The notes beneath the pieces are model-generated. The model was given only the letters and a program-made list of their open reading frames with translations. It did not search any database and was not told where the DNA came from. DNA of 64,000 nucleotides. It comes from a virus (Duplodnaviria; Caudoviricetes). The translations under genes and the position numbers were made by a program. Below, in pieces: positions 32,208 to 57,672 of the stretch. Position 1 is the first letter of the stretch, and each line of letters opens with the position of its first letter. The stretch lies in IMG/VR virus record IMGVR_UViG_3300031419_000378, positions 13,249-77,248 of that record; one strand, given 5' to 3'.

Positions 32208-32226
32208 CTTTAATCTTACATGTACG

Positions 32227-36364: not shown

Positions 36365-36393
36365 ATAGTTATAGTTACAAGCATGTTAAGTTT

Positions 36394-36650: not shown

Positions 36651-36787
36651 GTAACGCAGGATCAGTACAAGTTAATCAACGAAATCTTGGCCATAGCTTT
36701 TGCGTTATTAATCTAAATAATGGACATTCATGCCGGATGATTTGAAAATCGTAAGTCTATGATTTACTTATTCGGACATTAAAGTAG

Positions 36788-37219: not shown

Positions 37220-37260
37220 CAGTTTAAATACAACAAAACAGTGCCGGCCATGAAAATTAT

Positions 37261-37323
37261 GTCCGCTCTTCACTCAAAGCGGACAAAGGGCTGGTTAGCG
37301 TCCGCTTAGTGCCAACAGCGGAC
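37261..37323. repeat. 63-bp doublet B5-15nt-A6
   Basis: GTCCGCTCTTCACTCAAAGCGGAC-AAAGGGCTGGTTAGC-GTCCGCTTAGTGCCAACAGCGGAC. Confidence 0.9.
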
Positions 37324-37452
37324 CTAGATAATCGCCAGTGGTAATTGCTGATAATCCTCATCAGTCCAGATAGTAGCCTTAAGGTTGTGCCATCATGTTC
37401 ATGAACGTTAAAGTTGCTCAAAATGATTATAGGTAAGATTAGGAAGTAACTT

Positions 37453-37920
37453 ATGGCACGTCGAAGTGAATTAAAAGGTATAGCGATTGCTATTAATGGG
37501 AGTTTTGTAAGCAGAAACAACGACTTAAATGGATACTGGTCAATAGGCAAGATTAAATCATTCGCTCTTGATAACGGCCTTACCTCAGTGACTTTTCCTC
37601 TCACCCTTCCTATGACCAACTCCGCATCAAATCTGCAAAACCATACGGTTAACCGCTACGCCAAAATGCTCAAGAGCCTATTAAATAAACAAAAATTACC
37701 TAGCCTCTGGGTAAGCAACGCGGTCATTACAATCGACTTTGATGCTAAAGCGGGACATGCAAAATTGTATGAAGACACCACCTCAGGCGACCTTTTCCAA
37801 TGCACCTGTAAGATAACTGATGATATTGACCGAGATTACTCATCCATAATGTATGGGCGTTGCTTGCCGCATTCTGTAGTTCGAGAGTTAAAATCGACTC
37901 GAAATTCACCATCATTTTAA
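37453..37920 (+). CDS. Hypothetical protein (single-gene cassette)
   Basis: 155 aa; stop codon abuts repeat B6. Confidence 0.7.
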   Translation: MARRSELKGIAIAINGSFVSRNNDLNGYWSIGKIKSFALDNGLTSVTFPLTLPMTNSASNLQNHTVNRYAKMLKSLLNKQKLPSLWVSNAVITIDFDAKAGHAKLYEDTTSGDLFQCTCKITDDIDRDYSSIMYGRCLPHSVVRELKSTRNSPSF

Positions 37921-37921
37921 C

Positions 37922-37945
37922 TTCCGCTCCTCGCTCATAGCGGAC
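37922..37945 (-). repeat. Palindromic repeat, inverted copy B6
   Basis: TTCCGCTCCTCGCTCATAGCGGAC. Confidence 0.9.
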
Positions 37946-38033: not shown

Positions 38034-38411
38034 ATGGCCTTTCAGAACCCCGCCCAGAACTACACTGAAACGCGCCTGAACTTGGGCGATCTGGTCTATC
38101 TTTCACCTTACTCAACCTATCTGATGCGTAGCGAAAGCGACTGTCCCGGTGCCGGGATTGTCAAAGGATCTGTGCTGGCCATTGATCGCGCGCTGACACC
38201 AGCGCACGGTCAGCTTATCGTTGCTGAGTTTGACGGGGAGCTTTCGCTGAGGCGGCTGCTTCTCAATCCTGTTCCCGCCTTGCAGGCGCTGGACGCGGAC
38301 GAGACTATAACGCTGCTTGATGTAAGCCAGGCGCTTCCTGTGTGGGGTGTGGTCGCTTATGCCCTTACCGATATAGCGGGAGTGGGATTCAACGGACCAG
38401 CAGGAGAATAA
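38034..38411 (+). CDS. umuD: UmuD'-like (HumD-type) protein lacking the N-terminal arm and catalytic dyad
   Basis: Starts MAFQNPAQNY (UmuD GFPSPA.DY); no GDSM serine; SLRRL in place of T.KRL; precedes umuC. Confidence 0.75.
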   Translation: MAFQNPAQNYTETRLNLGDLVYLSPYSTYLMRSESDCPGAGIVKGSVLAIDRALTPAHGQLIVAEFDGELSLRRLLLNPVPALQALDADETITLLDVSQALPVWGVVAYALTDIAGVGFNGPAGE

Positions 38412-38413
38412 TT

Positions 38414-38643
38414 ATGTTTGCGCTGGCCGACGCCAATAATTTTTACGCCTCCTGCGAAACTGTATTCAGACCCGACCTTCGTGGCAAACCCATTGTCGTT
38501 GTGTCCAACAACGACGGCTGCGTTATCGCACGCTCAGCGGAGGCAAAGCGCATGGGCATCAAAATGGCCGCTCCGCTGTTTAAAAATGAGCGTTACTTTC
38601 GTGAGAACGGCGTTCATGTATTCAGCTCCAACTACGAGCTGTA
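38414..38643 (+). pseudogene. umuC: umuC 5' fragment, interrupted
   Basis: MFALADANNFYASCE...FSSNYEL, then premature TAG created by the insertion. Confidence 0.9.
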
Positions 38644-38714
38644 GTAAGTTAAGTGGAATGCAACATTGATTGGGTAAACTTTGAGCAGCAATGCTGTTGT
38701 CAGAGGTAAACACA

Positions 38715-39698
38715 ATGATGATTCCACCAAACGAGGATGTGCTGGTACTGGCGGAGCGCTGGCTGAAACTGCTGTCCGACCTGGGCCGGGCTCAGACCAC
38801 ACTCTCCGCCTACCGCAGTGCCCTCAGCCATTATTTTGCATTCTGCAGCCAGAACAGCATTGAACCTGAAAAGGCCCGGTTTGAAGACCTGGCCGCCTAC
38901 ATCAGCCCTCAGTTACCCGGCATGCCTTTTCCCGCAGCCAGCGCCACGCTCCAGCTGCGCCTTTCTGTGATCCGTCTCTGGTATGACTTTCTGCTTTATC
39001 AGGATATATGCAGTCTCAATCCGCTACCCCGTGCGGGTTTACCCGGCGTCATTTATACCGGGCGGGGGCTGGTCCCGCGTATCACCCGCTTACCCGTAAT
39101 ACCTGATGATGAGCAATGGCTGAAATTTCTTAAACATGTTTCAACTGCCTCCCTGCGTGACCGGCTGATGCTCGCGCTTGCCTATTTTGGTGCACTCCGC
39201 CGTGCAGAGGTGACAGCCCTGGCGCTTGAGGATATCGACCCTGCGCATCGCCTGATCCGTATCCGCCCGGAAACAACGAAAAGCAGGCGGGAAAGAATTA
39301 TTTGTTATGGTCCGGACGTGACGCCGGTACTGGCAAATCATTTTCGGCAGCTGAAGCAGGCTGGCTGGACACAGGGTGCGCTGTTCCGTTCATTTTCTGA
39401 TCGTAATTATGGCACACCCCTTTCTGTGTGGAACTGGAGTAAAACCGTACGCAGATGGGCTCTGGATACCGGGCTTCCACAGATTACAACACATACCTTC
39501 CGCCATCTTCGTCTGACCCATCTGGCGCGGGCCGGCTGGAAACTGCATGAGCTGGCGACTTATGCAGGACACAGGGATCTGCGCACCACACAAATTTATA
39601 TCCATCTGTCAGGTTACGATCTGGCTGGCCGGATAGCCGCAGCCGTGGCTGAAACCGACAGGAAAGTCGCCGGACTTATTTTTCAGGAGCCTTACTGA
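38715..39698 (+). CDS. Tyrosine recombinase (XerD-like, small partner)
   Basis: LRRAE, HTFRH, GHRDLRTTQIY catalytic residues. Confidence 0.9.
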   Translation: MMIPPNEDVLVLAERWLKLLSDLGRAQTTLSAYRSALSHYFAFCSQNSIEPEKARFEDLAAYISPQLPGMPFPAASATLQLRLSVIRLWYDFLLYQDICSLNPLPRAGLPGVIYTGRGLVPRITRLPVIPDDEQWLKFLKHVSTASLRDRLMLALAYFGALRRAEVTALALEDIDPAHRLIRIRPETTKSRRERIICYGPDVTPVLANHFRQLKQAGWTQGALFRSFSDRNYGTPLSVWNWSKTVRRWALDTGLPQITTHTFRHLRLTHLARAGWKLHELATYAGHRDLRTTQIYIHLSGYDLAGRIAAAVAETDRKVAGLIFQEPY

Positions 39699-41821
39699 TG
39701 AATGAAAAAACGGCCAGAGTCACTTATGTGCCTTTTAAACGCACAGATTATCAGCTGAGAGATGCGTTAAGTCCTGAGGAAAGAGACGCAATAAGTACAG
39801 GCTACCGGCGGTCAGCTGCGCTCGACCAGCCAGGTTCTCTGCCGTTTTTGCTGTTGCCTCTGCAGGACATTGCCTCACGCAGCAGTATCAGTGCCAGACT
39901 TGTCAGAATTACCATACTTACAGTTCTTGCAGAAACACACCGGGCGGGTCAGCCCTGCTGGCTGTGGACGCAGGAAAGGTGGTTAACGCTCTGTCAGCAA
40001 CACAGTTCCGGCAGGCCTTTGCTTGCTGCTTTTGCCTTTCATCTCGGCCCGTTTCCCTCTCCGTTAAGCCTGCCAGTGCATGGTGCACCTTCGCTGTACG
40101 CCAGTGCCATCTATGGCCGGATTTTTGTCAGCCATGAACTTAACCGGCTGACAGACGTTCTGATCTCACTGGGATATGTCGGGCAGAATCAGAAACACAA
40201 TCTGTCGGGTATGCTGGGTGTTCTGATGCTGATGAATAATGATCCGCAACTTGAAAATTTTACGACAGAACTGCTGTGGCGGGGGCAGAACTGTCACGAC
40301 CGGGGGATCGCAAGAGTTACAGGAAAAATATCCTATGCACTTGCTGCTATGGGGATTATAAAAAGCCCCCTGAGAATGCGTAATTATAAAGAGTGGCATG
40401 AAAAGCCAACAGAAGGTATCGCGCCTGACTGGGCCCGATGGTGCCGGAAGTGGCGGGAAACGTCGGTACTCCGCCCCCGCTCCAGAGAAACTCAGTACAG
40501 TTTCATTCTCCGCTGCGGCCTGTGGCTTGCCCGGGAAAAGCCGGAAATATGCGAACCGTCTGACTGGACAATGGAAACCTGCGCCAGCTTTATTGCAATG
40601 GTTGGCCGACTGAAAGTGGACGAGCTGTCACTGGACACAAATAAAGGGGGCAGGCGTTCAAACCGCTCAGGAAAGCCCCTGATGCCGCATTCCCGCAGCC
40701 GGTTTGTTTATGCAGTTCGCCGTTTTATGCTTGATTATGAAAGCTGGGGCTGGGGGAAATTAAAATTCAGTCCGGCCCGTCATTTGTCCTCGCCTGACAC
40801 ACCGCTGTTTCGTCAGGGCGTGAATCCCCGCGTCATTGATGATCCGGTCTGGCTGAAACTGGTCTGGGCAAGCCTGAATCTGCGTAAAGAAGATCTGCTG
40901 AGCGAAATTCATTATCCCCTGTCTATGCTTCAGGCTATGGCGGTTATCTGGACACATGCAGGGCTGCGACAGAACGAGCTGATGCGTCTGACAATGAACT
41001 GTATTACTCCACAGGCGGATGACATTCTGCAGGAAAACGGTGGTGCTATCCCGGCGGGCACTTTGTGCTATCTCAGCGTGCCGGCCGGCAAAACCTCTAA
41101 AGCTTTTGTTAAGCCGGTCTCGGCTGTAGTGAAAAAATATGTAGATATCTGGCTCAGTGAGCGTCCTCAGGAGCAGGCAGCACTTACGGATGAACGCACC
41201 GGCGAAAAAGTTCGTTTCCTGTTTCAGAATCGGGGTAAACCGGTGGGCAGGGACATAATAAATCTCACTGTTATTCCGGTTCTCTGCGCCAGAGCAGGAA
41301 TGCCTGCGGAAGATTCACGCGGTCCCATTACAAGCCACCGAGGCCGTGCTTCTGCCGTTACAGCACTGGCCAGTGTTACCGGGGGCATGTCTTTACATGA
41401 GCTGATGCAGTGGTCAGGTCACTCATCCGCACAGTCGACAATGCATTATATCCGCATCCGTCCGACTCAGCTGGCAGCATCGTTCGTAAAAGCAGACAGG
41501 GTCGCTCATATGATCAGCGTGCTGATTGACCACGATCCGGAAGCCGCGAGTCTGACCGGCCCCTCAACGTACTATGATCTGGGTGACTCATACTGCACGA
41601 ACCCCTTCTGGAGCAGCTGTCAGCACCGGATGGCCTGCATCGGTTGCGATTTTAACCTGCTCAAACAGAGCGCGCGCGGACTGATACTGGAAAGCAAAGC
41701 CTCTGTCAGACGTTACCTTGAGGAAGTTCCGCTCACACCCGATGAGAGAGCCATCGTGGAACAGGACGCAGAGAAAATTGAACAGGCTCTTAAAAGGTTG
41801 TCCCTCAAACCCGAAGGGTAA
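39698..41821 (+). CDS. Large tyrosine recombinase with long N-terminus and C-terminal Cys cluster
   Basis: GLRQNE, SHRGR, GHSS...MHY; CTNP...C.HRMAC..C; coupled to the previous gene. Confidence 0.85.
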   Translation: MNEKTARVTYVPFKRTDYQLRDALSPEERDAISTGYRRSAALDQPGSLPFLLLPLQDIASRSSISARLVRITILTVLAETHRAGQPCWLWTQERWLTLCQQHSSGRPLLAAFAFHLGPFPSPLSLPVHGAPSLYASAIYGRIFVSHELNRLTDVLISLGYVGQNQKHNLSGMLGVLMLMNNDPQLENFTTELLWRGQNCHDRGIARVTGKISYALAAMGIIKSPLRMRNYKEWHEKPTEGIAPDWARWCRKWRETSVLRPRSRETQYSFILRCGLWLAREKPEICEPSDWTMETCASFIAMVGRLKVDELSLDTNKGGRRSNRSGKPLMPHSRSRFVYAVRRFMLDYESWGWGKLKFSPARHLSSPDTPLFRQGVNPRVIDDPVWLKLVWASLNLRKEDLLSEIHYPLSMLQAMAVIWTHAGLRQNELMRLTMNCITPQADDILQENGGAIPAGTLCYLSVPAGKTSKAFVKPVSAVVKKYVDIWLSERPQEQAALTDERTGEKVRFLFQNRGKPVGRDIINLTVIPVLCARAGMPAEDSRGPITSHRGRASAVTALASVTGGMSLHELMQWSGHSSAQSTMHYIRIRPTQLAASFVKADRVAHMISVLIDHDPEAASLTGPSTYYDLGDSYCTNPFWSSCQHRMACIGCDFNLLKQSARGLILESKASVRRYLEEVPLTPDERAIVEQDAEKIEQALKRLSLKPEG

Positions 41822-41825
41822 AACG

Positions 41826-41849
41826 GGCCGCTATGTGCCAGAAGCGGAC
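41826..41849 (+). repeat. Palindromic repeat, forward copy A7, 4 nt after the recombinase stop
   Basis: GGCCGCTATGTGCCAGAAGCGGAC. Confidence 0.9.
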
Positions 41850-41978
41850 GTTAATGTATTACCTGTTCAGAAGCAGATTAGTCATTTTAAGTCATCAACA
41901 GAGTGCCAAGATGATTAAATTAATGTTTGACGCTGACTATATTTCTATTATTCTGGAAATATAGTTATTGGAGCCAGC

Positions 41979-42314
41979 ATGGACTTACATACCGCAGCAA
42001 ACGCACTTCGGGAGCTGGGCCACCCGACCCGTCTCAGCATATACCGGGAGCTGGTCAGGGCGGGTCATCACGGCCTGCCGGTTGGCGAACTACAGAAGCA
42101 CCTTGAGATTCCTGCCTCCACGCTCAGCCATCATCTTTCTGCGCTGATGTCTGCTGGCCTCATAAGTCAGGAACGGCAGAGCCGAACCCTGTTCTGCAGG
42201 CCCTGTTATGCGCAGCTTGAGCAGCTGATGGCTTTTCTGACTGAAGAGTGCTGCGCCGGCGGCAGCGACTGCAGCCTGTCTGCCGCGATGCCCCTTAAAG
42301 AGACTCCATTGTGA
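41979..42314 (+). CDS. arsR: ArsR/SmtB family regulator
   Basis: LGHPTRL.IYR.L, STLSHHL..L, C-terminal EECC. Confidence 0.85.
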
Positions 42315-43033
42315 ATAACGTGAATGATGCCTTGAACAATATCGATCCGACGCTCCTGGATGCGCCCCTTACGGAAGAGAAGCTGAAGGCTGCAGAAGTG
42401 CCACACCCGCCCCGTATCCTGATGCTCTACGGTTCGTTGCGGGAACGCTCTTACAGCCGGCTCACCACGGAAGAAGCTGCCCGGTTGCTGACGGCTATGG
42501 GCGCGGAGGTGAAAATATTTAATCCGTCCGGCCTGCCGCTGCCGGATGATGTACCTGAAACGCACCCGAAGGTTGCAGAGCTGCGCGAACTGGTACTCTG
42601 GTCAGAAGGGATGGTCTGGTGCTCTCCTGAGCGTCACGGTGCCATGACCGGCATCATGAAGACGCAAATTGACTGGATACCCCTGACGTCCGGGGCGGTC
42701 CGGCCATCGCAGGGGAAAACCCTTGCAGTCATGCAGGTCAGCGGCGGCTCACAGTCGTTCAACGCCGTAAACCAGATGCGCATTCTCGGGCGCTGGATGC
42801 GAATGATTACCATCCCGAACCAGTCATCTGTGGCAAAAGCCTGGGCCGAGTTTGATGAGGACGGTCGCATGAAACCTTCACCGTATTACGACCGCATCGT
42901 GGACGTCATGGAGGAACTGATGAAGTTCACCCTGCTGACGCGCGGGCGAAGCAACTACCTGACCGACCGCTACAGTGAAAGAAAAGAGAGTGCCACTCAG
43001 CTCTCAGAGCGGGTCAACCAGCGCAGCATATAA
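42311..43033 (+). CDS. arsH: Arsenical resistance protein ArsH
   Basis: [34 protein letters not shown]. Confidence 0.95.
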
Positions 43034-43059
43034 AAAAGCCGGCAGATGCCGGCTTTTTT
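43032..43059. terminator. Bidirectional terminator
   Basis: A6-GCCGGC-AGAT-GCCGGC-T6 between convergent arsH and arsC. Confidence 0.85.
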
Positions 43060-43091
43060 CACACTCGTTATGTCCGCAGCCTGGTGAATAA

Positions 43092-43520
43092 TCAGTGGCT
43101 GACGCGATGACCGTGCTCATCAATGACCACTTCGCCATCCTCTTTGGTAAAGGCTCCCTGCTGCGGATCTGGCAGAATGTCGAGAACCGCTTCGGACGGA
43201 CGGCAGAGCTTCGTGCCGAGCGGCGTCACCACCACCGGGCGATTAATAAGGATCGGATGAGCCAGCATGGCATCGAGCAGTTCGTTATCGCTGAAGCGGT
43301 CTTCTGCCAGGTCGAGCTGCTCGTACGGTTCGGTATTCTTGCGCAGCAGGGCGCGTACGCTGATGCCCATGTCCGCAATCAGCTTCTTCAGCTCGTCGCG
43401 GGACGGCGGTGTTTCCAGATACAGAATAACCTTGGGTTCGGTGCCGCTGTTGCGGATAAGCGCTAGGGTGTTGCGGGACGTCCCGCACGCCGGGTTGTGA
43501 TAAATGGTGATGTCAGTCAT
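43092..43520 (-). CDS. arsC: Arsenate reductase (glutaredoxin type)
   Basis: IYHNPACGTSRNTL, HPILINRP. Confidence 0.95.
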   Translation of the reverse strand: MTDITIYHNPACGTSRNTLALIRNSGTEPKVILYLETPPSRDELKKLIADMGISVRALLRKNTEPYEQLDLAEDRFSDNELLDAMLAHPILINRPVVVTPLGTKLCRPSEAVLDILPDPQQGAFTKEDGEVVIDEHGHRVSH

Positions 43521-43569
43521 AAGCGGTACTCCGTAAAGGCGCTGCACAGTCGCAACACCGGGGTTAAGG

Positions 43570-44853
43570 TTAAACAGACAGGCGCAGAGCCAGCGCGGCC
43601 AGCGTCACAAAAAGTACCGGCAGGGTTATCACGATACCCACGCGGAAGTAGTAGCCCCAGCTGACAGTAATGTTTTTTTGCGCCAGTACGTGCAGCCACA
43701 GCAGGGTAGCGAGGCTGCCGATGGGGGTGATTTTCGGGCCGAGGTCGCAGCCGATGATGTTGGCGTAAATCATCGCCTCCTTCACCACGCCCTGCGCGGT
43801 GCTGCCGTCAATCGAAAGCGCGCCAACGAGCACGGTAGGCATGTTGTTCATGACAGAAGAGAGCGCCGCCGTCAGGAAACCGGTGCCGAGCGTTGCGCCC
43901 CAGACGCCGTGCTCTGCAAACCGGTTCAGGGCGGCAGAAAGGTAATCAGTCAGGCCGGCGTTACGAAGACCGTACACCACCAGATACATGCCCAGCGAGA
44001 AGATAACAATCTGCCAGGGCGCGCCTTTCAGCACCTTGATGGTATCAATCACGTGTCCTTTGCGGGCAACCAGCCAGAGAACACACGCCGCCACCGCTGC
44101 CACCAGGCTTACTGGCACGCCGAGTGGTTCGAGAGCAAAGAAGCCGACTAGTAGCAGGATGAGAACAATCCAGCCGGTTCTAAAAGTGCGCGCATCGCGA
44201 ATGGCCTCACGCGGCGCCTTCAGTTTCGCCAGGTCGTAGGTGGCCGGGATATCCCTGCGGAAAAACAGGTGCAGCGTGACCAGCGTGGCGGCAACCGAGG
44301 CGATATTTACCGGCACCATTACCGAGGCATACTCGCTGAAACCCAGCTTAAAGAAGTCCGCCGTGACGATGTTCACCAGGTTCGACACGATGAGCGGCAG
44401 GCTGGAGGTGTCGGCGATGAAACCTGCTGCCATCACAAACGCCAGCGTGGCACCGGGGCTGAAGCCCAGCGCCAGCAGCATGGCGATAACGATAGGCGTC
44501 AGAATAAGCGCCGCCCCGTCATTGGCGAACAGGGCGGCTACCGCCGCACCCAGCAGAACGATACAGGTGAACAGCAGCCGGCCTTTTCCGCCCCCCCAGC
44601 GGGAAACGTGCAGCGCCGCCCACTCAAAAAAGCCGGACTCGTCGAGCAGCAGGCTGATGATGATGACGGCAATAAAGGTAGCCGTAGCGTTCCAGACAAT
44701 CTGCCAGACCACCGGAATATCCCCAATCTGTACTACGCCGGTCAGGAGCGCCAGAGCCGCACCGATGACTGCACTCCAGCCAATACTGAGGCCCTTCGGC
44801 TGCCAGATAACCAGTATCAGCGTCAGGACGAAAATCGCACCCGCCAGAAACAT
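43570..44853 (-). CDS. arsB: Arsenite efflux pump ArsB
   Basis: 427 aa multi-TM; [27 protein letters not shown]. Confidence 0.95.
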
Positions 44854-44951
44854 ACCTTCTCCTTTTTAAATAAAGTTGCCCGTTGATCCGGGCAGATGAT
44901 TATCCCGCACAAAACACATTCAAAAAATCGCATATATGATGGCAAAATTTT

Positions 44952-45305
44952 TTAAATGCAGACAGGCTTGCCGTTGGTGGTTGCGTTATCGCGTTCAGCC
45001 TGCTGGCTGAGCTTAAGGATGTCATCCCGCTGGCACAGATAAGTCTGTTCAATCACTGCTGCTGCCCAGGCTGGCATGTGCGGAGACAAACGGTAATGGA
45101 TCCACTTGCCGTCTCGTCGGTCGACAAGCAGGCCACTTTCTCTCAGTAAAGCCAGGTGACGGGAAATTTTGGGTTGTGATTCTTTCAGCGTGGATGAAAG
45201 CTCGCAGACGCAGAGTTCACCTTTTTCGCGCAGTAACAGCACCAGGCTGAGCCGGGTTTCGTCAGACAGGTTTTTGAAAAGCTGCAGGGGCATAAATGGT
45301 GGCAT
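44952..45305 (-). CDS. arsR: Arsenical repressor ArsR
   Basis: LSDETRL, ELCVCEL, SQPKISRHLA; AGGAG RBS before 45305. Confidence 0.9.
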   Translation of the reverse strand: MPPFMPLQLFKNLSDETRLSLVLLLREKGELCVCELSSTLKESQPKISRHLALLRESGLLVDRRDGKWIHYRLSPHMPAWAAAVIEQTYLCQRDDILKLSQQAERDNATTNGKPVCI

Positions 45306-45542
45306 GACATTCTCCTGAATTACAGAGTCCAGTGTCGTTTCCAGGACTGCGCATGTCAATTTTATATTCGATTAAGCATATATGTTAAGGCGGTCATCAT
45401 GGTCTGTGACAGTCATCAGGTGCACGGGCTGTTCACAGTGGCAGATACGGTAACAGAAAGCAGTCTCGAGGCGAGCAGTCAGCTGCACAGCCTGGACGTC
45501 AGAACGTCCAGGCTGTTCGGGGAAAAGGTACATACGGTGCTG

Positions 45543-45832
45543 GCCCGCGCCGATATCGGCTTTGCCGTGGGCGCAATGCGCACAGATACCGCCATCGAAA
45601 CTGCCGACGGGGCTCTGACGGAGGATGACTTACGTAAAATTCCGGCCTTTGTCCGGCTCTCCAGGAGACATACGGCGTGCTGGTCAGGAACATCATTATG
45701 GCAGTTGGCATCAAGGCAGCATTTCTGGCCCTGACCATTGCCGGAATGGGGACCATGTGGATGGCGGTGTTCGCGGATGTGGGTGCAAGTCTGCTTGTAG
45801 TGGTAAACGGCCTGCGCCTGTTGCGTCAGTAG
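45543..45832 (+). pseudogene. C-terminal remnant of a ZntA/CadA-type P1B ATPase
   Basis: ADIGFA.GA..TDTAIETAD, then frameshift to TMWMAVFADVGASLLVVVNGLRLLR. Confidence 0.85.
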
Positions 45833-46071
45833 CCGGATCGGCTGCCCGTCGGGTGGGTACTGCAGATAATGTCGCTTTTCGCGTACACCAAAACCCTTGC
45901 CACCTGAACAGCTTACAGGGCATGTTCAGGCAGCCCTGTCTTTTGTTGCGCATTATCTGTTACTACTGCGTTTTTCCCGCAAAAGGTCAGGCAGGGCTGG
46001 CGACGACAATTTTTTGCTTTCCGGCGTATGAAGTAGCTGTCCCTTGCTTCGTACCGTGGATGACAGAAAAT

Positions 46072-46398
46072 TCATGCTGCCATATTTCTGCACTCCTGAG
46101 CACAATGATGGCATGCTTCTGCGCATTTTTTACAGTGTTCGTGCTCATGCTGGCCGCACTCATCCCCGCATTTCTGGCAGGCTTCAGCGCAGATCCTGCA
46201 GATTTCTGTAGCAAACTCACTGTCAAGCGTCATTAATTTTGCCGCCATCCTGCAGATACTTGCGCACTGCATGTCCTGGCTTATGCATTCACGCATCATA
46301 TCGAGCTGAGGCTCCTTCAGGCACGATGCGACACAGTAATCACAGGTTGCGGCACAGATGTAGCAGGCTTCAATGCAGTTGCGATAATGCTCTGACAT
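46072..46398 (-). CDS. Four-helix-bundle Cys-rich copper storage protein (Csp3/DUF326-like)
   Basis: Repeated CxxxC/CxxC motifs, no signal peptide. Confidence 0.85.
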   Translation of the reverse strand: MSEHYRNCIEACYICAATCDYCVASCLKEPQLDMMRECISQDMQCASICRMAAKLMTLDSEFATEICRICAEACQKCGDECGQHEHEHCKKCAEACHHCAQECRNMAA

Positions 46399-46688
46399 AT
46401 TGTCCTCTCTCACTCGGCTTATTTGCGAATAAGTGGTAAGCCTGGAACAAAATCATCATTGGCGCAAAGATACCGCTGTACTCAGCACGGCCGGCAGTTT
46501 AACGATGCGGAAAGCGAGAAGGCAGTAAAAAAGAGCCCGTCGCAGCAAGACGGGCCGGCTCACGTAAGCCTTGAAAGAAGATTTACCGGAAAAAGTATTA
46601 ATGATGAGGGTAAAACACAACCACATCCCGGAGCAGTGACAGAAACGGACAGAAGATACCGGGCGAACCTTCTGTCCGGTACGACCCG

Positions 46689-46919
46689 TTATTTTTCCTG
46701 CTGCATCATCCTGCGGTGCATATCAATGATGCTCTGATGTGCTGCAGAATTTGCATTATCCATACTCTGGTGCGCCAGGATGGCACGCTCATGTTCATTC
46801 ATCATGGCAACAGCGTTATTAGTTACCTGACCGTCCGGCTCTGAAACAGGATGCGGCTGTGCCCATACTGATGAGGCAGAAAACAGGGCCAGAAGAGAAA
46901 CAAACATTAATTTTTTCAT
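46689..46919 (-). CDS. Periplasmic His/Met-rich metal-binding protein (PcoE/SilE-like)
   Basis: Signal peptide; MMNEHERA..AHQSM...HQSIIDMH. Confidence 0.7.
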   Translation of the reverse strand: MKKLMFVSLLALFSASSVWAQPHPVSEPDGQVTNNAVAMMNEHERAILAHQSMDNANSAAHQSIIDMHRRMMQQEK

Positions 46920-47016
46920 GTCGGCAGTCCTTACGATTAAAAGTTAAATAATGGCGGGCCGGATGCTCTCCGGCTTCAGTCATTTTTATCGTACAGGAGA
47001 AAAATGCTTCCGATCG

Positions 47017-47075
47017 AAAATGACAGAAATGTAATGTAAAAACAGTAAGTTCCAACATTACACAATTGTAATCAT
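47017..47075. promoter_or_regulatory. Putative CusR/PcoR-type copper boxes in the divergent promoter region
   Basis: AAAATGACAGAAATGTAATG and ATTACACAATTGTAAT resemble ATGACA-N4-TGTCAT. Confidence 0.5.
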
Positions 47076-47205
47076 GTCCGTCTTTCAGCTGTGATAGCTT
47101 TCCGGTAACAAAAAATAAACTTCCTGAACGGTAAGCACGGCTTGTGCTTGCGGAGCGGAGAGATTTTTTCTCCCGGGATACTGTGAATTTTGCCGGAGCT
47201 CAGTC

Positions 47206-49026
47206 ATGGAACTTAAAAGTTCACGACGTAATTTTATTAAAGGGATAACCGCCGCCGGTCTCGTGGGCGGCCTGGGGCTGAGAACGTTTGATGCGCTCTC
47301 GGCGGTAAGCCTGATGCAGTCCCGCACGCTGACCGGGACCGACTTTGATCTGTTTATCGGCGAAACACCACTGAATATCACCGGTAAGACCCGTTATGCA
47401 AAAACCATAAATGCGGGTCTTCCGGGGCCGCTGCTGCGCTGGAAAGAAGGCGACACTGTCACGCTAAGGGTAAAAAACCGCCTGTCAGAGCCGACCTCTG
47501 TTCACTGGCATGGCATTATCCTGCCGGCAAATATGGATGGCGTACCGGGTCTCAGTTTTCACGGTATCGAACCGGACGACACGTATGTTTACTCCTTTAA
47601 AATAAAGCAGAACGGAACTTACTGGTATCACAGCCATTCCGGTCTGCAGGAGCAGGAAGGAGTATACGGTCCGATTATTATCGATGCCGCTGAACCTGAG
47701 CCGTTTCAGTGGGACAGCGAGCAGGTAGTGCTGTTGACCGACTGGTCTGATGAAAAAGCCTCAGACATTCTCGCAAAACTGAAAAAGCAGTCAGATTATT
47801 ACAACTTCGCTAAACCCACCGCTACCGACTTTTTCCGTGATGCGCGGGAGAAAGGCCTCGCGAATACGCTGGCTGACCGGAAAATGTGGGCTGAAATGAA
47901 GATGAACCCGACAGATCTGGCCGACGTCAGTGGTTTCACATACACCTACCTGATGAACGGACAGGGACCCGGTAAAAACTGGACCGGTCTGTTCCGTAAA
48001 GGTGAGAAAGTACGCCTGCGCTTCATTAACGGCTCGGCCATGACTTATTTTGACGTTCGTATTCCCGGTCTGAAAATGACGGTCGTGGCTGCAGACGGAC
48101 AGTATGTCACCCCCGTGTCCGTTGATGAGTTCCGTATCGCCGTTGCCGAAACCTACGATGTGATCGTAGAGCCGACTGATGATGCTTACACTATTTTTGC
48201 TCAGTCTATGGACCGCAGCGGCTATGCGCGTGGCACGCTTGCCGTCCGGGGGGGGCTGTCAGCAACGGTTCCGAAACCCGATCCGCGTCCCTGGCTGACC
48301 ATGGATGATATGGGCATGGGCGGGATGGATCATGGCAGCATGGGCGGGATGGATCACAGTCAGATGCAGGGCATGAACGGCGGCGATATGCAGAGTATGG
48401 ATGGTTCAGATATACCAGCCCCTCCAACAGACAGCATGGCGGGAATGGATCACAGCGCCATGAGCGGTATGGATCACGCAAGCATGGCTGGCATGAGTGA
48501 CATGCAAAAACACCCGGCTTCCGAAACGAATAACCCTCTGGTCGATATGCAGGCAATGATGCCGTCAGCAAAATTAAATGACCCGGGCATCGGTCTGCGT
48601 AATAACGGCAGAAAAGTTCTGACTTATGCTGACCTGAAAAGTACGTTTGAGGATCCGGACGGCCGTGAACCCTCCCGTACTATCGAACTGCACCTTACGG
48701 GGCATATGGAAAAGTTTGCCTGGTCTTTCAACGGTATCAAATTCTCAGATTCAGAACCGGTTACGCTCCGCTACGGTGAACGCGTTCGTATCGTACTGGT
48801 CAACGACACCATGATGACGCACCCCATTCATCTTCACGGTATGTGGAGTGATCTTGAAGACGAGGATGGCAACTTCCAGGTACGTAAACATACCATTGAT
48901 ATGCCTCCGGGAACCCGCCGCAGCTATCGCGTCACGGCTGACGCACTCGGGCGGTGGGCCTATCACTGCCATCTTCTTTTCCATATGGAAACGGGCATGT
49001 TCCGTGAAGTCCGGGTCATTGAATGA
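47206..49026 (+). CDS. copA: Multicopper oxidase CopA/PcoA
   Basis: Tat SRRNFI, HWHG, WYHSH, HPIHLHG, HCHLLFH; MDH repeats. Confidence 0.95.
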
Positions 49027-49060
49027 GGTACTGCTGATGTCAGTTTCAGGGTGGAGTGAT

Positions 49061-49969
49061 ATGAAAAAGAATGTGTCGCGTTCTGCGGCAGGATTGCTGG
49101 TTTGGTCTGCACTTGCCGGAACGACGTTTACACCCGTCTATGCCGCGCCAGCGCATAACATGCAGCAGCATGATATGTCAGGGATGGAACATTCTGCTAT
49201 GGGCGGGATGGAGCCGATGGATGGTATGGAGTCCATGCAACCCGCTGCGTCAGCAGAAAGCAGAACGCCCATCCCGCCGGTTACCGAGGCTGACCGTAAG
49301 GCGGCATTTCCGGATGTCCACGGTCATAAAGTTCATGACAGCAGCGTGAATTACTTTCTGCTTGCCGATCAGCTGGAATGGCAGAAAAACAACGATCCTG
49401 GCGGATTCAGCTGGGATGTGAGCGGCTGGATTGGGGGTGACATTGACCGGCTCTGGATGCGCAGCGAAGGCGAAACCAGCGACGGTAAAGCTGAATCCGC
49501 AGAAGTGCAGGCACTGTGGGGACATGCCATTACGCCCTGGTGGGACGTGGTTGCCGGGGCCCGACAGGATTTCCGGCCCGGAAAGCCCCAGACCTGGCTT
49601 GCCGCCGGCCTGCAGGGAATGGCCCTTTACAATTTTGAAACCGAGCTGACAGCGTTTGCCGGCGAGAAGGGGCGAACTGCGCTGAGGCTGGAGGCGGATT
49701 ACGATGTGCTGCTGACCAACCGTCTGATCCTGCAGCCTTCCTTTGAAGCCAATCTTTACGGGAAAGATGATGAAGCGCGTGAAACCGGTAAGGGACTGTC
49801 CAGTACGGAACTCTCACTGCGCCTTCGCTACGAGGTGAAACGTGAGTTTGCTCCATACGTCGGGGTTTCCTGGAGCCAGCTTTACGGTAATACCGCCGAT
49901 ATGGCTGCCCGTGAAGGAGAAAAAGATAACGAAGTGCGTTTCCTTCTCGGGGCACGCATGTGGTTCTGA
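49061..49969 (+). CDS. copB: Outer membrane copper resistance protein CopB/PcoB
   Basis: GGAG RBS at 49053; DQLEW, GLRLRYE-like, terminal WF. Confidence 0.9.
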
Positions 49970-50000
49970 TGCAGTTAATTCAAACAAGACAGGTATTATA

Positions 50001-50381
50001 ATGAAACATTCATCTGCTAAGTATTTCATCGCTGTTGTGGCTTCTGTCACTGCTTTCGCTGTCCAGGCACATCCTGAACTGGCTTCATCAGTGCCTTCAG
50101 ACAAGGCACAGGTTGCGGCTCCTTCAAAAGTAGAGCTTCACTTCACCGAAAATCTGGTGACCAAATTCTCTGGCGCACGTCTGATAATGACTGCCATGCC
50201 GGGCATGTCATCGCACGCGCCAATGCCTGTTGCAGCTAAAGTTGCAGCCGGCAGCGATCCCAAAACCATGATTATCACGCCGGCAAAGCCGCTGCCCGCC
50301 GGGACTTATAAGGTGGAATGGCGTGCGGTGTCATCTGACACACATCCCCGTACCGGCAACTACAGTTTTAGCGTGAAGTAA
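50001..50381 (+). CDS. copC: Periplasmic copper chaperone CopC
   Basis: Signal peptide, mature HPEL, MTAMPGM, DTH. Confidence 0.95.
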   Translation: MKHSSAKYFIAVVASVTAFAVQAHPELASSVPSDKAQVAAPSKVELHFTENLVTKFSGARLIMTAMPGMSSHAPMPVAAKVAAGSDPKTMIITPAKPLPAGTYKVEWRAVSSDTHPRTGNYSFSVK

Positions 50382-50385
50382 TGCT

Positions 50386-51318
50386 ATGAACGATCAGACT
50401 TTTATTGTCATCCGGTTTCTTCTTTACCTTGATCTTATGGTTCTTTTTGGCCTGCCTTTATTTGAGCTTTATGCCCTGAAAGGCGTCTTAAAAAAACCGG
50501 TATCTTTGTTCAGCGTCTGGTCGTTCTTTTTCACGCTCATTTCTGCCGGGATTGTGTTGTCACTGGCAAACATGCTGCTGGTTGCCCAGTCTATGAGCGG
50601 TGTCAGCGACCCCGGTGAGCTGACTCTGCACATTATTGAAATGGTGGTCGGCGAGACCGCTGTTGGCATGAGCTGGGTTGTCCGGCTCGTTGCCCTGACC
50701 ATCGCCTTTGTCGGGCTCGGTCTGCGGCTCAGGAATGCCGTACTTTCACGTTATGTTTTGATGCTGGCAGGCGGTACGGCGCTGGCGACCCTGGCGTGGG
50801 GGGGGCATGCAGCCATGAATGACGGTGTGAGCTATTACGTCCATTTGTTGAGCGATATTGTTCATCTTTCCGCAGCCGGTGCCTGGGTAGGAGCCCTGAC
50901 GGCTTTTACCGTTCTGCTGAGTATAAAAAAAGCCAGTAAAGCGGCTTATGCACTGCAGCTGTCCGGGGCATTAACGGGATTTGCCCGTGCCGGCACGGTT
51001 ATTGTGATAAGCATCGTGATCACGGCAGTGGTTAATTTCGTGCTTATCACAGAAAAGCCACTGAGCACTTTGCCGGGAAGCGTTTACGGCCTGCTGCTGG
51101 TAATAAAGACCGCTCTGTTTTTTCTGATGTTATTGCTGGCTGCCGCCAACCGCTTCCGGCTTGCACCAAAGCTGGAAAATGCCCTGCTTCAGGGCCACTA
51201 TAAGGCGGGTATTGCACTGATGCGTAAAAGCATTATTACAGAATTTACCGTAGCGGTACTGATACTGGCAATTGTTGCCTGGCTGGGCACCCTGTCGCCA
51301 GGAACCGGTATGGAGTAA
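50386..51318 (+). CDS. copD: Inner membrane protein CopD
   Basis: Multi-TM; GHAA, HL.AAGAW.G, LAAANRF. Confidence 0.9.
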   Translation: MNDQTFIVIRFLLYLDLMVLFGLPLFELYALKGVLKKPVSLFSVWSFFFTLISAGIVLSLANMLLVAQSMSGVSDPGELTLHIIEMVVGETAVGMSWVVRLVALTIAFVGLGLRLRNAVLSRYVLMLAGGTALATLAWGGHAAMNDGVSYYVHLLSDIVHLSAAGAWVGALTAFTVLLSIKKASKAAYALQLSGALTGFARAGTVIVISIVITAVVNFVLITEKPLSTLPGSVYGLLLVIKTALFFLMLLLAAANRFRLAPKLENALLQGHYKAGIALMRKSIITEFTVAVLILAIVAWLGTLSPGTGME

Positions 51319-51344
51319 CAATTAACTGCAGGAAAAAACGCATC

Positions 51345-52025
51345 ATGACAACCATGCTGATTGTTGAGGATGAACTGAAGACCGGTACTTACCTGAAGCA
51401 GGGACTCCAGGAAGCAGGCTATGACGTGACCCTGGTGAACGACGGGCGTCAGGGCCTGGAGCATATTCTGCGACAGCATTATGACCTGATAATCCTGGAC
51501 GTCATGCTGCCCTCAATGGACGGCTGGGATATCCTGCAGCAGATGCGCATGGCACGCCACGAAGAGCCCGTCCTGTTCCTGACGGCCAGAGATAACGTCA
51601 GCGAAAAAATTAAAGGGCTCGATCTGGGCGCGGATGATTACCTGCTAAAACCTTTCGATTTTGCCGAGCTTCTGGCCCGTATCCGCACGCTGCTCAGGCG
51701 TAACCGTACACAGGCTTCAGGAAACCACAGCATTGCAGATCTGATCATGGACGCCTCCCGCCGGACCGTGAGCCGGTCGGGGAAAAAAATTCACCTGTCT
51801 ACCAAAGAGTTTGTGCTGCTTGAGTTGTTGTTACAGCGAACCGGGGAGGTTTTGCCAAGAAACCTGCTTTCCTCCCTGGTCTGGAATATTAATTTTGAAA
51901 GCGATACCAATGTCATTGACGTTGCCGTCAGGCGGCTTCGCAGCAAGGTAGATGATGACTTTACGCCAAAGCTCATTCATACCGTGCGGGGCATCGGTTA
52001 TGTTCTGGAGATACGTGAAGAGTGA
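51345..52025 (+). CDS. Heavy-metal response regulator (CopR/CusR/PcoR)
   Basis: Receiver LDVMLP, GADDYL.KPF, OmpR-type C-terminus. Confidence 0.9.
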   Translation: MTTMLIVEDELKTGTYLKQGLQEAGYDVTLVNDGRQGLEHILRQHYDLIILDVMLPSMDGWDILQQMRMARHEEPVLFLTARDNVSEKIKGLDLGADDYLLKPFDFAELLARIRTLLRRNRTQASGNHSIADLIMDASRRTVSRSGKKIHLSTKEFVLLELLLQRTGEVLPRNLLSSLVWNINFESDTNVIDVAVRRLRSKVDDDFTPKLIHTVRGIGYVLEIREE

Positions 52026-53428
52026 AGCGTAACTGGTCCCTGACTACACGGCTGAGCGTGATATTTGCCGGTGTAATGATGTCTGCCTGGCTTCTTTCCA
52101 GTGTCCTGCTTGTTGCTGCCCTGAGCAGCTATTTTCGCCATCAGGATGCCGCACTGTTGACAGGAAAGCTTGAGCTGGCAACCGAACTACTGGAAAGTGG
52201 AGCTGATTCCGGGCAGCCAGACAGTGCTTCGCTTGCACGCAAGGTTGCCGATGCCATGGTAGGTCACAGCGGATTGTATCTGTCGATTAAAACGTCGGAT
52301 AACCGGTTACTTGCCGACTATTCCTCGCCCGGTTTTCCGCTTCCTTACGGACGTTTTGCCAGCGAAGCCGCATATCCGGATACGATGCAGACAGTAGAGG
52401 ATGAAGGCTGGCGTTATAATGTTATTGTCAGAAAAATCAGTGCGCAGAAAGCAGGCGGACAACATGATGTCCTGATAACAGCCGCTTATGATACCGGCTT
52501 TCATGATGAATTTATCAGCCAGCTCAAAAAATGGCTGATTTGGTTCAACGGCGGGCTGATGTTCATTTCGGTATTACTGGGCTGGTTTGTCACAAGGATG
52601 GGTCTCAAGCCGCTGAATGAATTAAACCGTCTGGCCTCCGCTGTCACCATCAACAACCTCAGTAAACGTCTTCCTGCGCACAATCTGCCGGCCGAGCTGA
52701 TGGCTACCGTGGCTGAATTCAACAGCATGCTTGAAAGGCTGGAGAAATCCTTCAGGCGCCTTTCTGAGTTTTCATCGGACATTGCCCATGAGCTGCGTAC
52801 GCCTGTCAGTAACCTGATGATGCAGACGCAGGTTGCCCTGTCCCGGGATCGTGATGCAGCCAGTTACCGGGAGGTACTTTTCTCTAATCTGGAAGAGCTG
52901 AGCCGGCTTGCAAGAATGAGCAGCGACATGCTTTTTCTGGCGAAGTCAGAAAATGGCCTGATGATACTGGAGAAGCAGAACGTCTCCTTGCACGAAGAAC
53001 TCGAGGAACTGATTGATTTCTTCGAGCCTCTTGCTGGTGAAAGTCATAAAACGCTGAAGCTTAAAGGTGATGCTCTCGTCAGAGGCGATCGCCTGATGCT
53101 GCGTCGTGCGCTGAGTAATCTGATCACCAACGCCATAAAATATTCTCTGCCGGGCTCTGCCATATCCGTATCAGCAGAGCATAACTCGGACAGGGCCTTT
53201 GTACATATTTCCAATCACACAGAAGATATTGCACCGGAAAGTCTGGGCCGACTGTTTGACCGTTTTTACCGGGGCGATGCATCCAGGCAGCATAATACGG
53301 ATGGCGCGGGACTCGGTCTTTCTATTACGCGGTCCATTTTGCTGGCCCATGAAGGCGATCTGCAGGTAGCCGTGAATGATAATGTCATTACGTTCACGGC
53401 CATCATGCCGGCAACAGAGGGACCGTAA
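52022..53428 (+). CDS. Heavy-metal sensor kinase (CopS/CusS/PcoS)
   Basis: HAMP, AHELRTP, N box, FDRFYR, GAGLGL. Confidence 0.9.
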   Translation: MKRNWSLTTRLSVIFAGVMMSAWLLSSVLLVAALSSYFRHQDAALLTGKLELATELLESGADSGQPDSASLARKVADAMVGHSGLYLSIKTSDNRLLADYSSPGFPLPYGRFASEAAYPDTMQTVEDEGWRYNVIVRKISAQKAGGQHDVLITAAYDTGFHDEFISQLKKWLIWFNGGLMFISVLLGWFVTRMGLKPLNELNRLASAVTINNLSKRLPAHNLPAELMATVAEFNSMLERLEKSFRRLSEFSSDIAHELRTPVSNLMMQTQVALSRDRDAASYREVLFSNLEELSRLARMSSDMLFLAKSENGLMILEKQNVSLHEELEELIDFFEPLAGESHKTLKLKGDALVRGDRLMLRRALSNLITNAIKYSLPGSAISVSAEHNSDRAFVHISNHTEDIAPESLGRLFDRFYRGDASRQHNTDGAGLGLSITRSILLAHEGDLQVAVNDNVITFTAIMPATEGP

Positions 53429-53554
53429 TAACAAAATTTTCCGGGCTAAAATTTCATGATTTGAACTGCTCTGTATCAAGGTTATGTTCCCGGACATATG
53501 AAAGGATGCCCGGGAAAACCTGAAGTAAATATCTTACCTATGAGGAGTTACCTT

Positions 53555-53905
53555 ATGAAAAAACCGCATATGATTCTTGCCTCCCTGCTGTTTGTCCTGC
53601 CGGCTGCGGTTATGGCTCAGCAACCGGCCTCAAAAATGACGCATGAGATGAGCATGTCTCCGGCATCAAAAGAGTACATGTCAGGTATGCAAAAGATGCA
53701 CAGTAGCATGATGAATGCCCTGAAGGAGCAGGACGCTGACAGGGCGTTTGCCAAAGGCATGATCGAGCATCACAGGGGCGCGATTGCCATGGCTGAAACG
53801 GAGCTGAAATACGGGAAAGATCCGGAAATGAAGAAGATGGCAGAAGATGTCATCAAGGCACAGAAAAGTGAAATAGAGCACATGGAAGCGTGGCTGAAAA
53901 AATAA
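53555..53905 (+). CDS. DUF305/CopM-like periplasmic metal-binding protein
   Basis: Signal peptide, MI.HH.GAI.MA motif. Confidence 0.85.
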   Translation: MKKPHMILASLLFVLPAAVMAQQPASKMTHEMSMSPASKEYMSGMQKMHSSMMNALKEQDADRAFAKGMIEHHRGAIAMAETELKYGKDPEMKKMAEDVIKAQKSEIEHMEAWLKK

Positions 53906-54044
53906 CGGTCATCCGGCTTTATAAACGCTCTGAAGGGTTCTGCCCAAAGAATCCTTCAGTAAGCTTGCATCCATTATACACTCAGCTAAACAGGTTTAAT
54001 TTTACAGCGTCATCATACAGATATATCTGACGCCATTACGTTAA

Positions 54045-54263
54045 AGCCTGATTATCACCAACTGATATTCAGGGATACCCCACATATTGGCGCTGGCCTG
54101 GCTGCCCAGCTCGCGCTGTCCGGGAATAAGCGCCTCCGGATAAAGCGATTCCGGCAGGCCCGAACGCCACATAAGGGAATCCAGGGTGCTGAGGAAGTAG
54201 GGATTGAGCGCTCGGGCCGCTGTATCGCATGAGTAGCCGGCAATGCTGCCGCCAATTAGCGAG
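54045..54263 (-). pseudogene. Internal fragment of a TraU-like ICE gene
   Basis: Untracked frame: LNPYFLSTLDSLMWRSGLPESLYPEALIPGQRELG...NMWG. Confidence 0.65.
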
Positions 54264-54285
54264 GTGGCCGGATGTCTGTGAGTTG

Positions 54286-54573
54286 TCAGTAGGAAGAAAG
54301 GAGGTCAGAACGATCCCCTCGTGTCGTCGGATGCGAAATTACAATAAATTCTACGGGAGACTCAGTGTCGTTTCTGGCTTGATGCTTTGACCCCGGTGGA
54401 ATTTCTAGCCCCTGCAGGGCTTTAATTTTGCGCATTTCACCTTCCAACTCTATTGAAAGAATGCCATTGAGAACAAAGAAAAACTGTCTGGAAACGGAGT
54501 GAAAATGTCGCTTTTCAGAAGTGCCGGGAGGCATTTTTTCATGAATAACCAACCTGTCTTGACGGTTTACCAG
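54286..54573 (-). pseudogene. 5'-truncated cupin-domain gene fused to an IS110 remnant
   Basis: EKMPPGTSEKRHFH...FFFVLNG...IPPG.KHQ..N cupin motifs. Confidence 0.75.
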
Positions 54574-54927
54574 ATAACGCAGCATTAACTCTAATGCCAG
54601 CTCTGCATCCTGCGGGTCATCTTTAGCGCCGCTGGGCGAGAAGGCTTGCCGGTAACGAGCCAGGGACAAAGCGTGGACGGGGAAAACGGTGATAAAGGGA
54701 TATTTTTGAAGAGCATATACCACGGGGCCCTTCTTCAGCTCGAGAGCTATGGCGATTCTGCCTTTTACTTTCTGGTGTAACTCGGTAAGCCAGACATCAA
54801 GCGCTTCTGGTGTATGTTCAATCACATGGAATACGCGTTCACCGTTTTTAAACTGAACACAGACATCGTGTTTTTTATCTGCCCAGTCCAGACCAACATG
54901 TGCAGCGAACTGATTAGTCGCGGTCAT
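54574..54927 (-). pseudogene. IS110-family recombinase, N-terminal DEDD domain only
   Basis: VGLDWADKKHDVC, IALE, GAKDDPQDA; C-terminal domain absent. Confidence 0.8.
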
Positions 54928-55146
54928 CACCAACTCCTCTTCATCGGGGATTGGTATGCATTCCACGCTCTTCGAAAGAAATATAGCCAGCAGTTTATCT
55001 GCATGTCCTGAGTATTCGTTAGCGAACGTGGAGCACCTACTGGCTCGAAAGAAAAGCGGCGATCATCGCATGATTCTCGCTCAATATTCGTAACCAGTAA
55101 GCGCATACCCTGAATCACTTCAAAGTGTAATTCTCAGGGTGCGAAT

Positions 55147-55170
55147 GACTATATTTCGCTCAGAGCAGCC
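55147..55170 (-). repeat. Degenerate inverted palindromic repeat B7 near the element's right end
   Basis: AAT-GACTATATTTCGCTCAGAGCAGCC; shares the TTTCGCTCA.AGC.G.C core with B1. Confidence 0.55.
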
Positions 55171-55213
55171 ATCAAATCCGAAATAGTCCTGTAGATTTTC
55201 CATTCCACATAAA

Positions 55214-56246
55214 CGGCGACATGTCAGCACGCATGATGGCCATTCTGGGCGAGATGGCTGCGGGTCAGGAAGTCTACTCCATTGATGAGTCATTTCTGGA
55301 CGTTACCGGGATTGGCAACATTATCCCGCTCGAGACATTCGGGCAACAGATGCGCGAGCGCATTCGAAAGGAAACCGGGCTAATAATCGGCGTGGGATTC
55401 GCGCCTACTAAAGCGCTGGCCAAACTTGCTAACCACGCGGCCAAAAAGTGGACACAGACGAACGGTGTTGTGGACCTGTCTGACAGAAGCCGCCAGCGAA
55501 AGCTCCTGTATCTGACAGATGTCAGCGATATATGGGGAATTGGACAGCGTATCAGTAAACGGCTAAACGAGCTGGGAATAACAACGGCTTTGCAGCTTGC
55601 AGACAGCAACATCAGCATGATAAGGAAAAATTTTGACGTTATCGTTGAGCGGATTACGCGCGAGCTGAACGGCGAGTCCTGCATAGCTCTTGAAGATGCG
55701 CCGCCGCCCAAACAGCACATACTGAACTCGCGATCATTTGGCGAGAGAGTAACAAAACTGGAAGACATGCAGCAGGCTATCGTGCTGTATGCCACGCGTG
55801 CGGCGGAAAAGCTCAGGGAGCAGAATTCGCGCTGCCGCCATATTAGCGTGTCAGTTGCTACCGGCAGGCATGGCGATGAGCCGCGATACTCTAATACTGC
55901 ATCATGCATCTGCGACTATCCGACCAATGATACGCGGGACATTATTGAATTAGCGCTTCGCGGGCTTAGCACTATCTGGCGTGATGGCTTTCGGTACGCC
56001 AAAGCAGGGGTGATGCTAGGTGACTTTTACCAGTCAGGCACGACGCAGTTTGACATGTTCAGTGAGCAGCAGCCGCATGCAAACTCAGATGCACTGATGG
56101 CAGCCCTAGACGGTATCAATCGCTCAGGAAAAGGCAAGGTATGGTTTGCAGGGCAGGGAAATCGTGACAGTTTATGGCAGATGAAGCGAGAAATGCTGTC
56201 GCCACGCTACACAACAAGGATAAAAGATATTCCAAAAATAAAATAA
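55214..56246 (+). pseudogene. umuC: umuC 3' fragment
   Basis: GDMSAR, YSIDESFLD, SRSFG, W.MKREMLSPRYTT. Confidence 0.9.
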
Positions 56247-56291: not shown

Positions 56292-56315
56292 GTCCGCTAG
56301 GTGCCAGAAGCGGAC
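56292..56315 (+). repeat. Palindromic repeat, forward copy A8
   Basis: GTCCGCTAGGTGCCAGAAGCGGAC. Confidence 0.9.
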
Positions 56316-57656: not shown

Positions 57657-57672
57657 CTGTTTAACTATACAG
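57657..57672. promoter_or_regulatory. LexA (SOS) box
   Basis: CTGT-TTAACTAT-ACAG. Confidence 0.75.

Follow-up and report, generated by a model that had tools for sequence, protein, structure and literature searches.

Our analysis of a 64,000-nt stretch of viral record IMGVR_UViG_3300031419_000378 (the window, within which all positions are counted) indicates that a umuC gene has been split by a unit of 16,570 bp, 38644-55213, and that this unit is likely an active or recently active site-specific integrative element, of a two-recombinase family that homes to umuC and to its Pseudomonas homologue rulB. To this family belong both the integron-like elements with effector genes in Pseudomonas syringae and the umuDC island found in Pantoea and Erwinia; the window copy is a fresh copy of this known family, and both the family and the idea of SOS-driven recombinases are already published. 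What the window copy adds is one more cargo, arsenic and copper resistance, and the limits of the element and its core site are now defined to the base. More generally, the family homes to the error-prone polymerase gene of plasmids, integrative and conjugative elements (ICEs) and megaplasmids.

The target operon and the ends of the element are laid out as follows.

38034..38411, + strand: umuD (S24 peptidase, 125 amino acids), first gene of the target operon; from the list of open reading frames, and named an S24 family peptidase in near-identical contexts.
38414..38643, + strand: umuC 5' fragment, codons 1-76 and the TA of Tyr77; from reading the junction.
38644..38648, + strand: GTAAG, an invariant 5-nt segment, identical in 30 distinct left junctions.
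38649..38660, + strand: left (recombinase-proximal) 12-nt arm; from the junction and alignment.
55201..55213, + strand: right 12-nt arm (55201-55212) and an ambiguous A (55213); from the junction and alignment.
55214..56246, + strand: umuC 3' fragment, third base of codon 77 to the stop; from reading the junction.

On the left, umuC breaks at 38643 after ...AAC TAC GAG CTG TA and is followed by GTAAG and the arm, the stump being closed at once by an in-frame TAG TAA that the insertion supplies. On the right, the arm and one A are followed by umuC from 55214, as C GGC GAC ATG. The limits of the element are therefore fixed to within the single shared A, and the right arm is an inverted match to the left at 11 of 12 positions. 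Joining 38414-38643 to 55214-56246 gives an open frame of 1263 nt (420 codons), and a natural empty site exists: the Pantoea agglomerans megaplasmid pPagL15_1 carries an uninterrupted umuC, equal in length and 96% identical overall, which across the joint is identical to the rejoined window gene. An earlier, sequence-only reading of this DNA had proposed a precise insertion into umuC, ends with inverted 12-bp repeats, and a target left unduplicated except perhaps for one ambiguous A. The pPagL15_1 allele agrees with the first of these in both junction and length, the ends recur in relatives, and no duplication beyond that A is found at either junction.

Relatives were collected by a homologue scan with one genome per species, which gave 48 loci; statements about junctions hold where the flank suffices. 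At about 35 loci the recombinase pair follows umuC codon 76 plus TA in one orientation, and the match to UmuC stops at residue 76 in the window, in pDC3000A, in pPV989-94 and at about 30 other loci. The insertion always falls after the TA of the Tyr codon in an SSNYxLY motif, the small recombinase gene starts 50-75 nt past the stump, and the right junctions read arm and A, then C or T and the remaining umuC; in every case examined a Tyr codon (TAY) would return on precise loss. These shared ends are seen in 30 distinct left and 18 distinct right junctions, in hosts as varied as Pantoea, Erwinia, Kluyvera, Chimaeribacter, Pseudomonas and Sphingomonadales and in umuC alleles of 35-97% protein identity. 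Judged from the sequences, such a recurrence of the same ends at the same codon is far beyond chance. A few copies are exceptions (L030, L033, L039) and adjoin non-umuC DNA or a very short umuC remnant. The cargo is unrelated among elements of 4.8-16.6 kb (about 4.2 kb in pDC3000A) while the ends are invariant, and the only conserved genes are the recombinase pair: the smallest relatives (4.2-4.8 kb; pDC3000A and L048) consist of the pair and one or two cargo genes.

Thus the idea of a umuC-targeting family, which the sequence-only reading had advanced from this one copy, is borne out by the roughly 35 related loci, and its remark that only two recombinases are present, with no third accessory gene and no conjugation genes, holds as well. 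It had further predicted that tabulated insertion sites would show the same umuC codon with a variable 5-6-nt segment of the Tn916/Tn554 coupling type. The codon came out as predicted and the segment did not: GTAAG is constant in 30 of 30 distinct left junctions and matches neither umuC flank.

How closely can movement of the whole unit be followed? The window element and one on pAR1aC (P. agglomerans AR1a, NZ_CP059090.1) sit at the same codon and are 99.946% identical over 16,570 bp with no gaps, while the flanking umuD and umuC of pAR1aC are only 79-80% identical to those of the window. pAR1aC is a 99-kb MOBF conjugative plasmid whose record annotates the genes without describing an element. 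Likewise, a fluoride-resistance relative of 10,984 bp is 99.92-99.97% identical in four umuC backgrounds whose flanks are at most 85% identical, some having no detectable nucleotide match. Since identity drops exactly at the element ends, these comparisons fit site-specific movement of the whole unit rather than homologous exchange.

A separate arrangement occurs in Pantoea eucrina G002, where contig 9 (L060-L064, about 38.4-80.8 kb) holds nested elements. One of them seems to include, in the cargo at the far end, a umuDC operon that is itself split by a second element, leaving two right ends and two umuC 3' parts in tandem. A contig that skips the element, found when four public runs were compared with 38200-55600, was set aside as another intact allele: its codon is TAT, with T for C, and its flank letters differ.

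The two conserved genes of the window copy are these.

38715..39698, + strand: small tyrosine recombinase, 327 amino acids, XerC/XerD-like, with a SAM-like N domain and a catalytic domain (PF00589, PF02899).
39698..41821, + strand: large tyrosine recombinase, 707 amino acids, with PF00589 at residues 404-588.

Both frames are intact. The start of the small recombinase is most likely 38715, which lies behind a ribosome-binding site and is the start in the RefSeq annotation of the pAR1aC copy; with the ATG at 38691 the protein would have 335 amino acids. The XerC and XerD models score it far below their cut-offs, and structurally it matches XerD (1a0p). The start codon of the large recombinase gene overlaps the stop codon of the small (ATGA). 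Residues R424, H547, R550, H575 and Y584 of the large protein are invariant among 11 aligned homologues of 53-93% identity, as is a Cys/His cluster at residues 633-650. In the predicted structure, residues 244-356 can be matched (Z about 10) to the core-binding domain as found in XerD and lambda Int, and the N-terminal extension ahead of them is modelled confidently as all-helical. A weak match of residues 143-228 to Xer core-binding domains and a C-terminal helical hairpin that matches many unrelated chains were both set aside without interpretation. Pfam and NCBIfam give only generic integrase matches for the pair, and the homologue search only generic names.

When the two ends are joined they form a 12-6-12 core, that is, an arm, the 6-bp spacer AGTAAG (the preceding A and GTAAG) and the other arm, an arrangement shared with dif, lox and core sites like them. 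The exact joined sequence occurs once in the metagenome collection, at 8095-8124 of locus L065 (contig Ga0265780_10000131, 121 kb), with cargo genes on one side and a recombinase pair of 77% identity on the other, a position that suggests a tandem or attP-type joint; the cargo beside it comprises a D-serine-dehydratase-like gene, a LysR regulator and an ornithine cyclodeaminase. A degenerate joined sequence is found in Xenorhabdus. The target site in umuC shares only the first A of the spacer with this core, and all natural junctions have the spacer at the left end and umuC bases at the right. This uniform arrangement suggests that strands are probably exchanged at one fixed point, where the right arm meets the spacer. 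We would expect the small XerC/D-like and the large 707-residue recombinase to act jointly on the joined core, which would recombine with the umuC site at that point. Either one strand pair would be exchanged and replication would finish the process, as with CTX phage at dif, or the heterology would be tolerated with a strong strand bias.

The stretch from the umuD coding region to the recombinase genes contains no promoter-like site. Having no recognisable promoter of their own, these genes would be transcribed by readthrough from that of umuDC. Of 27 family loci, 19 have a canonical LexA box ahead of umuD, so that for most members mobility would be coupled to the SOS response. Precise loss would restore DNA polymerase V. 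Elsewhere in the window, two perfect LexA-box-like sites (CTGT-N8-ACAG) stand to the right of umuC in an AT-rich region, at 57657-57672 and 62827-62842.

Could a different kind of element have produced these junctions? In a transposon of the Tn916/Tn554 type, the 5-6-nt segment would be a coupling sequence brought from the previous flank and would vary between insertions. The constancy of GTAAG at all 30 distinct left junctions and its mismatch to both umuC flanks leave this reading a very small chance, and Tn554 in particular has a third gene, TnpC, with no conserved counterpart here, the smallest members being the pair plus cargo. The constant spacer argues instead for a fixed, probably single-strand, exchange point. 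We give a small chance to a strand-biased circularizing integrative element (SE), or something like GInt, which copies itself out without leaving an empty site. SEs likewise have a small and a large recombinase, imperfect inverted ends and, in the joined form, a 6-bp spacer, which as here lies beside the recombinase-proximal end, and one SE, carrying tmexCD-toprJ, also targets umuC. However, our element, where the recombinase genes overlap and cargo follows directly, has nothing that corresponds to tfp and srap of the SE core or to ginC and ginD of GInt; the SE rule, by which the old spacer goes to the distal end and 6 bp of target to the proximal end, is reversed in all junctions seen here; and the three-recombinase rulB elements use a different codon (the Asp of SNxDGC) and make a 3-bp repeat.

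Of the readings considered, we think least probable that the unit is a relic unable to move by itself, whose spread is due solely to its vehicle or to homologous recombination of the umuDC operon around it. The window copy does come without direct evidence of movement, it contains an IS110 remnant, and the recombinases are frameshifted in some relatives (L007, L032, L045). However, identity falls from 99.95% to about 80% exactly at both ends, the 10,984-bp relative shows the same fall in four backgrounds, and both recombinase frames are intact with their catalytic residues. We therefore return to a site-specific element that is, or recently was, active, and several points weigh against it. For the window copy no circle, excision product or transfer was seen in the data, which are assembled contigs. 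The joint in L065 need not represent a free circle and may instead join elements in tandem. Our account of strand exchange is drawn solely from how uniform the natural junctions are, and many of these have a common ancestry. For the large recombinase the predicted structure is of low quality (mean pLDDT 56), its usable match being the core-binding domain only. Finally, no LexA box (CTGT-N8-ACAG) lies upstream of umuD in the window copy or its class, and SOS coupling, judged from such motifs, is plausible for the family and unsupported for the window copy.

The remainder of the element is 13 kb of arsenic and copper resistance cargo, which starts within about 160 nt of the recombinase pair, and two palindromes that share a stem and differ in their loops (types A and B).

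41826..41849, + strand: 24-bp palindrome, type A, 4 nt past the stop of the large recombinase, where homology within the subfamily ends.
41979..45359, both strands: arsenic resistance, arsR-arsH (+) and arsC-arsB-arsR (-); from Pfam and the RefSeq names in the pAR1aC copy.
46072..53905, both strands: copper resistance, a four-helix-bundle Cu-binding protein (-) and copA, copB, copC, copD, copR, copS and a DUF305 protein (+); from the same sources.
54286..54966, - strand: N-terminal piece of an IS110-type transposase fused to a cupin domain (PF01548, PF07883).
55145..55172, + strand: degenerate palindrome, type B, where subfamily homology resumes and runs to the right end.

Only the cupin part of the 54286-54966 frame is annotated in the pAR1aC copy. 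On its domain make-up the frame is a remnant and not a working transposase, probably the scar of an insertion sequence (IS) that once lay near the type B palindrome.

The palindromes appear to mark out cargo more generally. In the subfamily that carries them, homology stops just past the first and resumes at the second, the type B copy lying 45-70 nt ahead of the right end; contigs from other samples break at 41849; and one relative (L003) carries two successive cassettes with a B-then-A doublet between them. Outside the element, palindromes delimit single genes in an AT-rich array (30388-37945) and bracket the umuDC operon itself, at 37922 and 56292 (56292-56315), as they do on pPagL15_1; in arrays on Pantoea megaplasmids the same two types enclose cassettes of one gene each as well as umuDC. 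In every Pantoea genome examined, each type is present in about ten copies; these are clustered, and some of the clusters have no recombinase pair anywhere near. This pattern suggests cassette exchange by some enzyme. It is conceivable, though we think it doubtful, that in the palindrome-bearing subfamily the umuC-homing element doubles as a mobile gene-capture platform. If the pair or a partner did recombine the palindromes, one would have a non-IntI, integron-like cassette system riding a site-specific transposon. The palindromes, which bound the cargo here and cassettes elsewhere, are the only part of this analysis that could lead to something new, and a literature search for their sequences found nothing. 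In the array, a cassette with an FRG-domain gene (34082-35123) is 96% identical in many Klebsiella IncFIB/HI1B plasmids, and this homology breaks off within the type B palindrome, as would be expected had the cassette moved by itself.

As for the vehicle, a lambdoid prophage (L059) occupies 1-29477 of the window and 13 kb before it, with genes for an integrase, a repressor-type helix-turn-helix protein, a Q antiterminator, terminase, portal, a P22-type coat, a tape measure and a tail protein of the exopolysaccharide (EPS) depolymerase kind. Its coat protein is 73-80% identical to siphovirus coats from Klebsiella, Salmonella and Escherichia; the phage collection holds no relative at the DNA level, and no attachment repeat was found. 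The island lies about 9 kb past the last tail gene, in the AT-rich array, and the right end of the window matches Pantoea megaplasmids. Together with the natural empty allele on a megaplasmid, this right end leads us to read the locus as megaplasmid DNA beside a prophage. A free phage as vehicle was rejected in view of the missing attachment repeat, the lack of similar phage DNA and the megaplasmid match, and we do not claim packaging.

How does the element stand beside known systems? Its nearest kin are published. According to PMC4542609, the view of rulB as a hotspot for insertions goes back to Arnold 2001; the name integron-like elements, for the inserts with effector genes, comes from Jackson 2011, where it was also proposed that LexA controls their integrase. 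The rulB integron-like elements (that of pDC3000A and a 4.3-kb avrPpiA1 insert) share with ours a homologous pair of small and large recombinases, the insertion point after codon 76 and the orientation. In pDC3000A the pair is 54% and 55% identical to the window pair (tblastn), a recombinase gene again lies about 60 nt from the stump, and the cargo, variable throughout the family, is one type III effector, whereas the window element has its 13 kb of arsenic and copper resistance. Unlike the P. syringae elements, it also sits in Pantoea-type host DNA and has palindromes bracketing the cargo. A 12-6-12 core or an invariant spacer is not defined in those parts of the integron-like-element papers that we draw on.

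Closer still is the umuDC island, an 11-kb insert in umuC with XerC and XerD orthologues, for which De Maayer 2015 (PMC4458695) suggested stress-driven expression or excision and which is present in ICEPan, P. vagans C9-1, pEB102 and pEI70. The same kind of insert was described on pPV989-94, as fragment R4', by Xu 2018 (PMC5971314), and the R4' recombinases are 89-90% identical to the window pair (tblastn). The island differs from the window element in its 11 kb of length, its fluoride-resistance and glycolysis genes and a right end without the type B palindrome.

Other systems use the same gene or a similar machinery in other ways. The three-recombinase rulB elements ILE-FH1/FH4 on pWW0, whose site-specific integration was shown experimentally by Rhodes 2014 (PMC4542609), share with ours the target gene and the placing of the recombinase genes against the 5' stump. 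However, they and GInt have three recombinases plus tetR/ginD where the window element has two recombinases, and we confirmed that the pWW0 insertion is at GAT (the Asp of SNxDGC, codon 34 in window numbering) with a 3-bp direct repeat. Tn554 and the SEs (PMC10214605) resemble our element in layout: they pair an ordinary with a large RHRY recombinase, are specific in their target and show a 6-bp unit at the joint, whereas the window element has no counterpart of TnpC, Tfp or Srap and its constant spacer stays at the proximal end. An SE core is made of four genes, intA-tfp-intB-srap, in contrast to the two conserved genes here, and the published tmexCD-toprJ element in umuC, an SE with four core genes, was rejected as a member of the same family. 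IMEX elements, unlike ours, have no recombinase of their own and use the XerCD of the host to integrate at dif, whereas the window element encodes its own pair and targets umuC. An integron combines an IntI-type integrase, a neighbouring attI site and cassettes bounded by attC. With 59 bits against a cut-off of 265 for the integron-integrase model, the small recombinase is not IntI, yet the cargo does have two palindrome types at its borders, at which relatives lose homology to one another.

A more distant two-recombinase subfamily, of about 35% identity and with related arm motifs, is represented by pSE11-2 (L053, 6561-16115) and pKpNDM1 (L054). Here umuC is interrupted around codon 42 by an insert of opposite orientation, and the cargo of WYL, ThiF and MPN-type genes resembles a defence system; a weak Klebsiella match that we followed up proved to be another subfamily, cut by an IS. 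Three different codons among the first 80 of umuC/rulB thus serve as insertion points for no fewer than three recombinase systems, unrelated or only distantly related to each other, so that on conjugative DNA this gene is an unusually crowded landing pad.

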